DNA from: Candidatus Gastranaerophilales bacterium Zag_111
GTDB lineage: Bacteria > Cyanobacteriota > Vampirovibrionia > Gastranaerophilales > Gastranaerophilaceae
Length of the DNA stretch: 64,000 nucleotides
Assembly: GCA_001899395.1 (NCBI GenBank)
Contig: MOYD01000024.1
Coordinates: 436-64,435, forward strand
Direction of reading: 5' to 3'
Below are positions 38,363-64,000 of the stretch, in pieces (position 1 is the first letter of the stretch; each line of letters begins with the position of its first letter). The notes under the pieces are model-generated. The model did not search any database. It saw only the letters and a program-made list of their open reading frames with translations, and was not told the origin of the DNA. The translations under genes were made by a program, and so were the position numbers.

Positions 38363-39535
38363 ATGGAGTTTTTAAAGAAAAATGTTGATTTAAAATCTTT
38401 GTCTCAAAAAGACCTAGAATTATGTACTAATTATGTACTCTATGGAAAAGACAAAGATGGTACTTCAATGGTTGATAAGAAGCTTATTTATATTAAATCT
38501 AAACATAATTCTTATTAGAGACAAGAACCTTTATCTCTAGAAGCTTTATTAGAAGATCCAAATTTTGAAGAATCGTAGTTAAAAGAACCCACTAATATTT
38601 ATAAAAAGATTAAACCTTCAATTGATAAGGAAAAAGTTAAAGATATTCCTGGCATGGTAGAGTTATGGGAAGAAATTGATAAGTTAGATTAGTTTATTTA
38701 GATTTAGGAAGGCAAAGTTAAACCAGAATCTCCTGTTAAAAAGGTTGATTCAAAAACCCTTTATACTCTAAAACACACACTAATAGATCTTCGCCGCCAA
38801 TAGTATATTTTGAAAGATTCTTAGTTCCCTGAGATTTAGCCGAGAAAAAACTATTCTTAGTTTTATTCTAACAGCGCCGATTATTAGGTTAATTACTAGG
38901 TTTTTCCTATTGGAGTTATGAAAGACGAACATGACATTAGATTTACAGAGCCTTGGAGAGATAATAGCAGTACGGCGGTGCGAAATATTGAGGAAGAAAT
39001 TAAGCAGTTGAATAAAGAAGGAAAATTTTATTTTAATTTCCTTGATAAGAATCACATTTATCAATTGTGTTTATATTATTATGAGGTTAAGGATTTAGCT
39101 AGAAAACATCCTGATTCGCTTTTAAACAACCTATTATTAACTCTTGATTTCTATATTGATAAAGCGCATTTAAGCCCGCAGCAAAGATTAATTCTTGAAG
39201 ATAAGAAACGTAGAATGAAGAATGAGGAAATTTCTATTCACTTGTTTGAAGAACTAGGCATACATCACTAGGAAAACTATATTAGTACTATTTGGAACAA
39301 AACTTGTAAGCTCGTGGCCGCTGCAGCAAATTTACACTATGATGAGTGGCTGGCGAGAAACTATGATAAAGCGTGGAAAATTTGTGGATGTTGCGGCAAA
39401 AAATTACTTAGGGACACTAGGAATTTTGTTAGAAAAAATAACTCATATGATGGGCTTACTTTAAGATGTAAATAGTGTGATAAAAAAAAAAGGTTAGGAA
39501 TACTAGATTTAGAGGACGGGGTTAAAAATAAGTGA
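38363..39535 (+). CDS. Putative late-gene regulator (sigma region-4-like HTH plus C-terminal zinc ribbon), 13 in-frame TAG
   Basis: One frame is open only with TAG read. LSPQQRLILEDKKRRMKNEEISIHLFEELGI resembles sigma region 4. CGCCGK..CKQCDK ribbon. TGA stop. Confidence 0.5.
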
Positions 39536-39729
39536 TTTTCTTTTGAGCTATTAGATACTATAGGCTTTATAATTATTGTTTTGCCGTAAAACTTTAATTT
39601 CAATTGAATTTCAATTGTTTATTCAATTGTTTCTTAAAATACAATTCTTCGCCGCCGTTCTTACAATGAATTTTGGCGGCAGAAAACGTATTAAGAAAAT
39701 GGCGGCGAAGCAACGAGGAGGACAGATAA

Positions 39730-39978
39730 ATGGAAAAACAATTAATGGAATGTTTTACACATTTCCAGCTTGTTGATCTAATCGGATTTGCAAATATACT
39801 CCAAGTTCCCGAAGAAGAAAATTTTGAAGATTACGTGGTTAATATAGTTGAGGCTTTTGATAAGAAACCTAGACGTATTAGAAAAGAACTTGTAAAGCTT
39901 GCAAAGCAAGTTAGAGACAACAACATAGAATATGATAAGGAGATGGCGGCGAAGAAATGTAACCCTGATAGTGAATAA
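39730..39978 (+). CDS. Hypothetical protein
   Basis: RBS GAGGAGG. 82 aa, no TAG. Confidence 0.55.
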   Translation: MEKQLMECFTHFQLVDLIGFANILQVPEEENFEDYVVNIVEAFDKKPRRIRKELVKLAKQVRDNNIEYDKEMAAKKCNPDSE

Positions 39979-59989: not shown

Positions 59990-62173
59990 ATGAACATTTT
60001 CAATCAATACGGTATAAAGGAAGTCGCAGATGTTACTTTCTATTCAATTACCAGAGTTGGAGATGAAGAATTTTATACACCTGTTTTATTTTTTGATACA
60101 TTGAAGGTTTCCACTGTTAAAAAGACAGTGAAGACAGTCAATGCTACAGGAGGAAAAGGAAACGGTAAAGTTATATCGTGGAACTTCGGTAAAGAGATTA
60201 CTTTATCTTTAGAAGATGCTTTATTTTCAGATGCATCGTTAGATATGTTCTTAAATGGACGAATATAGACAAAATTAGCTGATTGGACTTCTGTAATTGC
60301 AAAGCTTAATACAGCAAACAAATATGGTAGATTACACTATTCAACTAAAGCTTATCCTTCGCCGCAATTGACAATGAGTGAATGGGAGATCGTTTTTAGA
60401 TGCGCAGAGAAAGCTGGTTATAGTGCAAAGTATGGAGACGCAGGATTGACTTTAGACGCCAGTGATAATAAAGAATATTCATATAGATATTAGTATGATA
60501 CCATTCGTGGTGATAAAGAAGGCGATTAGTTTGTCGCTGAGAATAGAAAATATCTGACACAAAAATATATGAATAGAAATCAATTGTCGCCGCAATCAAG
60601 AAATGTTGCATATTTTTATGATATAAACGATGGATATTCTGGTGTTGACATAAGAATTGTTGATGAGAAAGTTGATACAGATTTTACTGAAAGTGTTGAG
60701 ACTGGAGGAACAAAAATCTATATAGAATCGTCAAATTCTTGGTACACAGAGGAGGCTGCGGCTGAATATATAAAAGCAAGAATTGATAATGCCGCAACTA
60801 ATAATACCGTTGAAACATTAGTACTGAAAAAGAATATTTACGTACGTTATGTTTAGAATGGAAGTATTTGCTACAGAACAGGAACAATAACTGCTTGGAT
60901 TAGTATAACAGCGCAAGGTTTTTACTGCCGAGCAACTTATTTAGAATTTTCTAATTCAACTGATGTTTTGAATAATCCTTACTGCGGCCGTGACACGTTT
61001 AATGACCATATATTCTACTATTTATTCCCAAACTATTTAGGAACTATAATAGATTTGTGCTATTGCGACTTGCAAGATAAATTCTATCTTGCTATGCCGC
61101 CGATAGTAATAAATGAAATTGTTAAAGAGATTGATTCAGTTCATAAGATTGGAAAAATTGAAAACGATCTCTATGACAGTTAGTATATAGATAGATTTGA
61201 AAAGTGCGTTGTTACAAATAGAGATGGATTTACAATTGATGCTGGATAGCAAAGAGAAAATCTAGTAAAGTATTATAATAATGTTACAGATGAGAGCTAT
61301 ACAATTTATTATGATGCTAAGACAATGTTGCCTTTGTTTACTGGTGAGAATTTTAATATTGAACCTTATACAAAGCAATATATTAAAAATACTGAATCAA
61401 TTGAAATTACTGATTCAACTGTTTTATTGAGTATTTCCAAGTCAATTGAAGAAAAAAGTGCTTGCTACTATGATTTTCCATATCAAGTTGCTTATCAAAT
61501 AGCATTAGTTGGTATTGATTTGATTAGTCTAATAGGCAATTCAATTGCTGATTGGGTGGCGGCGCAAGTTGAAGATTTTGATCATTTGGAAGATATAATC
61601 TTTATTGGTGGTCTAGATGAAAATGGATTGCCAGTAGGAATTACTGTTGAAACAGATGGATATACAATTACGAAAATTACTTTTGACACTAATTCATTAT
61701 TAATCAAATATGTTCAAAAGAATCCAAATCTATTTAAAATTAAACGCAATACAATTTATTATAAATGGACACGTACTGTAGATGAAGCTGGTAGTATTTT
61801 TACAACAATTGGTACGGATTTAATAATCAGCGCAGATACGTTTCCAAGTGAATATAGAATTGTTGGAGAGACTTATATAAGAGAGCAAAAAACGGGAAAA
61901 GATTAGCGATGTCAAATCGTATTTCCTCGAGCAAAAATTTCTCCAGCAACAGATATTAAATTACAAGCTGACGGTGACCCCGTTACTTTTTCAATAGATG
62001 TAAATATCTTAATGCCGAAAGATAAAGTAATGATGGAATTAAGATAGTTCGATGTAGAAGAGGATAAGAGAGAGGGCGGCTTTAGAATTATACCTCAAGA
62101 TAAACGATACTCTTATACTCCTACAAATCAGGAATACGTTGATACTGTTATTGATAACAACGAGATTTATTAA
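59990..62173 (+). CDS. Structural paralog 4 (727 aa), 8 in-frame TAG
   Basis: Same-frame pieces 59990, 60569, 60968 and 61325 joined by TAG only. Conserved termini. Confidence 0.7.
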
Positions 62174-62186
62174 GGAGGTGAAAGAG

Positions 62187-64000
62187 TTGAATTTATTTGA
62201 AAAATATGGTATTAAGGAAGTTGCTGATGTTGTGTTCTATTCAATGAATTAGGTTGGCGATGATGAGATTGTTTATACTCCTGTTCTTTACTTAGATACA
62301 TTAAAAGTTTCCATTTATGAAAAAACTGCTGAGAGTGTTTTTGCTACTGGTGGTTTAAAGAATAAGAATTTGATTAAGTGGAATTTTGGAAAATCAGTTC
62401 AATTGACATTAGAAGATGCGTTGTTCTCGCCAGCGTCTATGAGTATGATATGGGGCGGCAAGTTAGATAGTACTTTTAGTGATGCAACTTCTTTAGTAGC
62501 AAAAATTAATTATGCAAATGTATATGGTAGATTGAGGTATTCTACTAAAGCTTATCCTTCGCCGCAATTAACTAATGATGAATGGAATATTGTATTTAAA
62601 ATTATTCAAAATAAGCTTGAAGGAACTACTTTGGATATTTTAGATAATGATGTTGCTAATACATTAGATGATGATTTGAAAACTGCTTTTATTAATAGAT
62701 ATTATGATAGACCTGTTCTATTTGATGGTGTCAATGATGTTGGCAGTGATACTGGGAAAAATGACTTATCTCAACCTTGGACTTATACCTACGACTTAGA
62801 GAATTTTGGTACTTACTTTGGCGCCAATTACTTAAGTGTTTCACAATTGAATTTAGAAGGGTATGAGAATATAAATGATCATTATGACGATAATGGCGTG
62901 CTTAAAGTTGGACATTATCGGTGGTATTCAGCTAAAGCAATGCCTGAGTATGTTATTTATATTATTAGAAATTCACTGAAAGAATTGAGTGATATTGGTA
63001 ATATAAAAACTAATATTGGTGAAGTTGAAGTTGTAGATAGAATGGAAAAGTGTTTGGTAACTAAGAGAGATGGATTTAAAATTAGTACTAAAGAACAGCT
63101 TGATAATCTATTTAGATATTATGCGGATGATAGAAGTGAAACTTATAGTATTTATTATGATGCTAAAACTATGTTACCACTGCTTCATATTGAGGATGAT
63201 GAAATTTAGGGATATAATTTAGAGAAGTTTTGGGAAACATCAACTTTGGTAAGTGAAAATAGGTATGATTATGGTAATTATTAGGAACTAGACGTTTATA
63301 GTTCTTATTCAAAATTATACTAGTACTTATTATATTTAATTTCAACATGGGATTCATCATCTCTTGGAGATAGTTCTTCAAAGGGTTATACAGTAACATT
63401 TTCTTTAGATAATGTTTATACTTATACTTTAGCATCTGCTTCGAGTGGAATTAATATTTCGTAGAATTCTATTTTGGATTATGAAGTTTTATATGAGATA
63501 TTAGCTTCAATAGCAACAAATCGTGTTTTAACAAAAGAGCCAGATTATTATTTGCCACGTAGTGTCAGCTTGCTTTTGAATTATAGTACTGAAAATGGAT
63601 GGTCAGCATTTGTTAGAGCAATTGGTTTACGAGAAAACGATTTTTCTTGGATGAATGATATTTTCAAAATCAAATTCGGTACTGTCTATTACAAATGGAC
63701 ACGAACTGTAAAGTATCAAGAATACGAAGATGATGCGGTTCTTGGTTCTTGCTTTACAATTGATGCGGATACATTCCCAGATGATTATAAAATAGTTGGA
63801 GAAACCTACATACGAAATCAAAAAACAGGTAAAGACCAGCGATATCAAATCACAATTTTTAAAGCAAATGTATCATCAGATACTTCAATAACTTTATAGG
63901 CAGACGGAGATCCAACGACATTCTCTATGACAATAGATGTGTTGGTTCCAGAGAATGACATAATGATGGAGATGATTCAACTAGACACAGAAGAAGATCG
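62187..64000 (+). CDS. Structural paralog 5 (3' end outside window), 6 in-frame TAG so far
   Basis: TTG start after GGAGGTG. LNLFEKYGIKEVADV..GETYIRNQKTGKDQRYQ..ITL(TAG)ADGDPTTF. Confidence 0.65.

Follow-up and report, generated by a model that had tools for sequence, protein, structure and literature searches.

The original late-gene model for phages using genetic code 15, in which TAG is read as glutamine (Gln), reportedly goes back to Borges et al. 2022. Recoding of TAG to Gln in phage late genes is already known, and the 64 kb stretch of contig MOYD01000024.1 analysed here (the window, G+C = 34.7%) adds one further example and leaves the existing understanding of code-15 recoding unchanged. 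TAG is very probably decoded as Gln by means of a suppressor tRNA in the packaging, head and tail genes of the window, while the early region can be read either way. Metaproteomics has confirmed code 15 for the crAss-like phages (PMC9523058), and the control of late or lytic genes that has been proposed for the recoding is widely cited (PMC10879173, PMC11210395). Related gut phages of the phAss-1 or proposed Phassvirus group (OQ749652, filed under the NCBI 'Caudoviricetes code 15 clade') have the same recoding features and carry Sup-CTA suppressor tRNAs, in only some of the recoded members (PMC10607447).

Like code-15 gut phages such as the crAss-like phages and Lak megaphages, the window has in-frame TAGs in structural and packaging genes where the aligned residues are Gln, its early genes can be read in the standard code, and its coding density increases strongly under translation table 15; genes for a tRNA with the anticodon CUA, tRNA(CUA), occur in at least one relative. 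It differs from the crAss-like phages, which are Crassvirales on Bacteroidota, in being SPbeta-like with presumably a Firmicute host, and from the known code-15 gut phages in that no suppressor tRNA was found in the 64 kb and that the genes for an endolysin and a small membrane protein are free of TAG. phAss-1 is similar in being a gut phage of the 130-190 kb class with ties to Enterococcus phage EF1 and the SPbeta-like phages, in having TAG read as Gln in the genes for the large terminase (TerL), the portal and the tail, in the great length of the tape-measure gene among relatives, and in belonging to a group where recoded and non-recoded members are mixed. Capsid identity between phAss-1 and the window is 35%, genome order differs, and the phAss-1 suppressors adjoin nrdD, a gene absent from the window. 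Similarity to phAss-1 did not extend to the level of a genus, and megablast of 42-60 kb returned matches to an intron core only. The standard-code SPbeta-like phages (Enterococcus EF1, Clostridioides phages, Bacillus SPbeta) have distant capsid homology to the window (23-30%) and share the YonB, YonD and YonG families, and differ in their use of the standard code, which is also found in 19 closer relatives from IMG/VR.

The window is best explained as a section of the genome of an SPbeta-like, gut-type tailed phage, the host of which is presumably a low-GC Firmicute with the standard code. The capsid protein was distantly related to those of phAss-1 and of SPbeta-like phages of Enterococcus, Clostridioides and Staphylococcus, and the YonB, YonD and YonG matches were precomputed matches on the orthologs in a relative, L009. 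An SPbeta-like lineage, presumably living on Firmicutes, is thereby added to the phages that read TAG as Gln. The source NCBI record has 67,969 bases and the relatives 120-190 kb, from which it follows that most of this phage genome is missing. No match was returned by a capsid-protein search of GTDB genomes for a prophage or host, by an exact-match DNA search of viral and metagenome contigs with the final 57 window bases, or by an exact-protein look-up of indexed contigs with four window proteins.

In-frame TAG codons of the late block

The window was divided into the following parts, in window coordinates:

3-1338 (+), GH25 endolysin (3-1004, 5' end cut by the window) and small membrane protein (1021-1338)
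1351-2139 (+), papain-family (C1) peptidase beside the lysis genes, Pfam Peptidase_C1
2201-26400 (+), early region of about 40 short, early-type open reading frames (ORFs)
26.4-38.3 kb, region of low coding density, rich in repeats and promoters
38363 to window end (+), late block of packaging, head and tail genes with PHROG matches

Frames were taken from stop to stop with TAA and TGA as the only bounds, and gene starts were refined or fixed by orthologs. The late block (38363-64000) contained 67 in-frame TAGs, which together with the C1 peptidase made 69 in 15 genes (TerL counted once), and one further TAG (12633) lay in a frameshifted tnpB, in agreement with an earlier note on this DNA that had counted about 70 in 16 genes. 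Off-frame, the combined frequency of TAA and TGA was about 8.2% per codon across these genes, so the late frames of 390-1082 codons lacking both are not due to chance (P for a 390-codon frame without either is about 3e-15). PHROG profiles and orthologs aligned without interruption across the TAGs, including those in TerL, portal and tail genes.

The earlier note had proposed that coding density under translation tables 11 and 15 be compared. Run on the window, the comparison gave a rise from 0.77 to 0.92 in the late block with TAG as a sense codon, with the number of ORFs falling from 39 to 25 and their mean length increasing from 171 to 299 amino acids (aa), and a rise from 0.76 to only 0.80 in the early region. 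Reading TGA as sense brought no gain in late-block coding density. The absence of internal TAGs from the early genes was borne out, with none in the 5142 codons of 29 genes, where the late-block rate would predict about 43, and all but one of the early genes ended in TAA or TGA, so that this region is readable in either code. The late-block genes and their in-frame TAGs were as follows:

38363-39535 (+), phrog_5767 protein, first late gene; 13 TAGs, 65% of Gln positions
39978-40901 (+), phrog_3314 protein; 1 TAG; L009 ortholog with YonG_N match
40911-43310 (+), TerL in three exons (40911-41276, 41582-41818, 42090-43310); 6 TAGs
43307-44893 (+), portal protein (phrog_2739); 1 TAG
44838-46325 (+), phrog_3313 protein; 2 TAGs; L009 ortholog with YonD_N match
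46325-47005 (+), gene; 0 TAG
47033-48154 (+), major capsid protein (YonB-like); 0 TAG; YonB Pfam match on L009 ortholog
48245-48781 (+), gene; 0 TAG
48796-49272 (+), virion gene; 3 TAGs, crossed by the PHROG match
49199-49528 (+), gene; 0 TAG
49515-50243 (+), virion gene; 4 TAGs, crossed by the PHROG match
50257-50754 (+), virion gene; 4 TAGs, crossed by the PHROG match
50741-51490 (+), virion gene; 12 TAGs, 75% of Gln positions, crossed by the PHROG match
51511-55565 (+), phrog_2729 virion structural protein, paralog 1 of five, with two group I introns; 1 TAG
55669-57837 (+), paralog 2; 1 TAG
57853-59976 (+), paralog 3; 5 TAGs
59990-62173 (+), paralog 4; 8 TAGs
62187 onward (+), paralog 5, cut by the window end; 6 TAGs

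Over the late block TAG made up 25% of Gln positions and was spread unevenly, from none in the capsid gene and two of its neighbours to the high shares noted above for the first late gene and the gene at 50741. The capsid orthologs in the relatives L001 and L002 were likewise without TAG. This spread would fit less efficient decoding of TAG than of the ordinary Gln codons, and the lack of TAG in the capsid gene and its neighbours is what would be expected if suppression were costly.

Recoding was concentrated in structural and packaging genes and reached lysis only in part. The earlier note had held that late and lysis genes alike require TAG as a sense codon, which held for the late block but not for the endolysin and the small membrane protein, neither of which has a TAG. 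Its statement that every gene then reads as one long protein applied to most genes, the exceptions being the C1 peptidase with an in-frame TAA, TerL with three exons, paralog 1 with two introns and the frameshifted tnpB. The peptidase has TAGs at 1405 and 1492 and the TAA at 1729-1731, which the Peptidase_C1 domain spans as a single stretch. All 17 aligned peptidase homologs were uninterrupted at the TAA site, a variable column, and Q was found at the first TAG column in the motif 'RDYQF', including in a standard-code phage. The TAA may stem from a sequencing error or a nonsense mutation, or the gene may be made in two pieces. Homologs of this peptidase sit in unrelated phages. The tnpB gene (12029-13145, +), with OrfB_IS605 and Cas12f1-like TNB domains, a +1 frameshift near 12400-12430 and the TAG at 12633, is probably a decaying copy.

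The TerL exons were located by tblastn with the intact 628-aa TerL of L001, and the intervening sequences were about 305 nt (41277-41581) and about 270 nt (41819-42089) long, with Rfam Intron_gpI matches of 14 bits at 41266-41589 and 45 bits at 41767-42070. The introns of paralog 1 were placed at 54720-54995 and 55052-55343 (Rfam, 69 and 66 bits), exon continuity being read from the translation. Four group I type intervening sequences were therefore present in the late genes, three scoring 45-69 bits and one 14 bits. The intron core at about 55125-55255 was the sole part of 42-60 kb with nucleotide matches to GenBank phages, namely Lactococcus AM1-like phages and Yersinia phiR1-37. Annotation of the late half needs table 15 and the removal of the four introns, without which terminase, portal and tail genes appear fragmented.

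The five tandem phrog_2729 paralogs (51511-64000) had common N- and C-terminal ends and divergent middles. In relatives a tape-measure-like ORF came after the paralogs; in L007 it begins at 12.8 kb, exceeds 2500 codons and has 57 TAGs.

Glutamine at the TAG positions

The earlier note had derived Gln from alignment of the tandem paralogs, and its reading agreed with recoded and with standard-code relatives. TAG was aligned with CAG or CAA across the paralogs in the motifs GKD-Q-RFQ, TL-Q-ADGDP and Q-FD, and all the positions that had been quoted were correct (TAG at 59401, 61904, 63897 and 62045; CAG at 54700 and 63837; CAA at 59461 and 61964). The TAG at 62045 aligned with CAG at 59542, CAA at 63978 and, in yet another of the paralogs, TTT.

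Codon-level alignment with orthologs of three recoded IMG/VR relatives (L001-L003) gave 39 TAG-TAG pairs and 68 TAG-Gln pairs, the latter made up of 20 window TAGs and 48 TAGs of the relatives. Gln was the best residue by 192 log-likelihood units, calculated with a substitution table from the same alignments, at a background Q of 2.8%. In 19 IMG/VR relatives with <2 TAG per 1000 codons, taken as the standard-code set, Q was in the majority at 13 of the 30 TAG columns of the window, with no other residue leading in more than three, and Gln was best by 236 log-likelihood units. Several of the 13, in TerL and in the protein encoded at 38363, had Gln without exception. Three TAG columns of TerL were occupied by Q in nearly all of these relatives (exon 1 residue 79, 17/17; exon 3 residue 158, 16/18; exon 3 residue 196, 17/17), and Q was the majority at each of the seven tested TAG columns in the genes at 48796 and 49515.

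In the gene at 38363 the family-invariant Gln columns 147 and 303 were written TAG, CAG or CAA depending on the genome, and the phrog_5767 alignment of its protein (residues 13-376) crossed all the TAGs. A public protein collection contained full-length orthologs of this protein from many assemblies as well as an entry (P0001, source NCBI) identical to the TAG-to-Q translation, with Q at 13/13 TAGs, which indicates that a recoding-aware gene caller already reads the contig in this way.

A survey of 80 relatives (loci L025-L104) included recoded genomes (7-20 TAG per 1000 codons) mixed with standard-code genomes (<2 per 1000), and the two kinds were interleaved in the ranking by similarity to the window, which suggests that recoding has been gained or lost repeatedly within a single clade. 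With recoded and standard-code members at 45-60% protein identity, the clade is a handy one for following such gains and losses.

Source of suppression and competing explanations

The late block would be without full-length proteins unless TAG were suppressed. In the most likely scheme, one put forward earlier for recoded phages, the early genes would be read in the code of the host, and a phage tRNA(CUA) charged with Gln would be made from an early or middle part of the genome outside the window and would out-compete release factor 1 (RF1), ribosomes would then pass the TAGs, and virion production would hang on this tRNA. That the phage has a suppressor of its own, that its timing follows this scheme and that there is any regulatory purpose are points we infer.

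The earlier note had placed the suppressor outside the window, which is plausible given the arrangement in a recoded relative, IMGVR_UViG_3300025689_000001 (L118). This genome has two tandem tRNA(CUA) genes (710-785 and 789-863, both above the Rfam tRNA threshold) in its early region, 9.2 kb upstream of a BrxL-like gene. In both tRNAs a U1-A72 pair is combined with A73, and the G2-C71 and G3-C70 pairs typical of bacterial tRNA-Gln are missing; that they are charged with Gln by way of glutamyl-tRNA synthetase and GatCAB is a guess. The window position that corresponds by synteny to these L118 genes (about 18.6-18.8 kb) was coding, with no tRNA remnant.

The tRNA-Gln(UUG) of the window (9384-9457, +) is canonical (cloverleaf with U1-A72 and G73, structure read by eye) and not a suppressor, and it was not conserved among relatives. 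No tRNA of any kind was found in seven late-block loci of relatives (L001-L003 and L007-L010), and contig L011 had 29 tRNAs, none with CUA. A search with the phAss-1 NrdD returned only phAss-1 relatives, and an early-gene query (DUF2828) found no relatives.

Several results weigh against a phage suppressor tRNA reading the late-gene TAGs as Gln under a timed programme. As the earlier note had reported, none of the six tRNAs in the window has a CUA anticodon, and ARAGORN detected no tRNA(CUA) there even at relaxed thresholds and with introns allowed. No release-factor or aminoacyl-tRNA synthetase gene was recognised in the 64 kb. A suppressor was found within 10 kb of the late-block start in 0/80 relatives (loci around the phrog_5767 gene), a tRNA(CUA) in only 1/15 loci around the BrxL-like gene, and none among the 22-26 tRNAs in the loci of the two closest recoded contigs. 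Sup-CTA tRNAs have been detectable in only about half of predicted code-15 phages (PMC11210395). TAG ended 1/38 early ORFs and 0/17 late ORFs, which is no statistically clear shortage, since the standard-code relatives, which do end genes in TAG, use it for only 6.8% of their stops. Gene timing was assumed from gene function. The case for gated lysis is weak, as it comes from the one TAA-broken peptidase. The reading of TAG as Gln is supported by three independent comparisons that agree, all of them alignments rather than peptides.

The split between early and late genes may have a cause other than timing even where TAG is read as Gln. Early genes could be a fast-turnover accessory set exchanged with standard-code phages, the late module having long evolved under suppression and the early region not yet having gathered TAGs, an explanation regarded as rather unlikely. 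It would agree with the absence of detectable similarity to the closest relatives just upstream of the late block, with the scattered matches that are all a more distant relative shares with the early region, in contrast to a late block that is 50-74% identical, and with the mobile items of the early region (tnpB, GIY-YIG endonucleases and methylases); the interleaving of recoded and standard-code relatives also means that modules can meet both codes. However, TAG is absent from the BrxL-like early gene although this gene is kept throughout the clade, a late-gene bias has been reported across unrelated recoded phages (PMC10879173, PMC11210395), and the avoidance of the capsid gene by TAG within the late block points to selection on translation. 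Much less probable is read-through without a phage tRNA(CUA), whether by a host suppressor or by a near-cognate tRNA-Gln misreading UAG together with inhibition of RF1. The CUA tRNA is missing from the window and from most loci of recoded relatives, the phage encodes the tRNA-Gln(UUG) at 9384, and the half of code-15 phages lacking a detected suppressor mentioned above would fit as well. Against this, only part of the genome is in the window record and one relative does have two tRNA(CUA) genes. Misreading by a near-cognate tRNA is inefficient and would scarcely get through the 12-13 TAGs of a single gene, TAA, the main stop of the phage, would be misread by tRNA-Gln(UUG) at least as readily as TAG, and no candidate RF1 inhibitor was recognised.

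Decoding of TAG as another amino acid (pyrrolysine, Trp, Tyr, Lys or Glu) is highly improbable. ARAGORN labels CUA tRNAs 'Pyl' by default and at some of the TAG columns relatives have K, E, N or P, but Gln was ahead of the next residue by 46-236 log-likelihood units in each comparison, invariant-Q columns were repeatedly struck, Tyr and Trp were rare at TAG columns, and no pyl genes were seen. It is scarcely credible that the TAGs are real stops, in late genes that are pseudogenes of a decaying element or contain assembly errors. Broken genes do occur in the window (the tnpB frameshift and the peptidase TAA), but the late genes were interrupted by TAG only and never by TAA or TGA, frames were open for up to 1082 codons, 39 TAG positions were common to independently assembled relatives, and dozens of relatives had the same pattern.

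Early and control regions

The early region encodes an RNA ligase, DNA methylases, a BrxL-like Lon ATPase, tnpB, the six tRNAs and a transfer-messenger RNA (tmRNA). The BrxL-like Lon-type ATPase (23834-25264, +), with domains of the BREX family, was kept across the whole clade at 53-68% identity, and its gene often adjoined large tRNA arrays. ROOL RNA (Rfam RF03087, 264-280 bits) was located inside such arrays in three relatives (L011, 3850-4435; L105, 5659-6254; L106, 5104-5696) and was not found in the window. The phage tmRNA (10217-10537, +) matched Rfam RF00023 over its full length with 94 bits and was missed by ARAGORN at default settings. The tag frame closes with ...NCTSNFAMAA and then TAA; the tmRNA has ...CTCCACCA at the 3' end. 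No tmRNA was seen in the early-region loci of relatives.

The first late gene is preceded by a near-consensus promoter of the housekeeping type:

38026-38054 (+), TTGACT, 17 nt, TG-TATAAT; 11/12 consensus matches, by pattern match only

A mirror-image partner of this promoter was located on the minus strand at 38001-37973. PHROGs labels phrog_5767 a 'sigma factor', an assignment that was rejected, as the 38363 protein had no Pfam family, no PDB profile match and no Foldseek match at E < 0.5 when queried with a model of mean pLDDT (predicted local distance difference test) 80. It is conceivable, though quite doubtful, that this gene, with its 13 TAGs and host-type promoter, is a late-transcription activator, through whose translation the level of the suppressor tRNA would gate all of the late programme, and that the tmRNA would rescue ribosomes that have run past the TAG ends of host genes; the idea of an activator comes from gene position, TAG density and promoter pattern only.

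The region at 26400-38300 is possibly an origin and control region. It includes iteron-like repeats of the GTTGAAAA type at 36.2-37.4 kb, a 13-nt tandem unit, TATAGCTCAAAAC, at 34844-35006, and five copies of a near-consensus promoter, TTGACA-17-TGTTATAAT. Paralogous small genes (29897-30280 and 32383-32766) lie on a 300-nt duplication with 80% identity.

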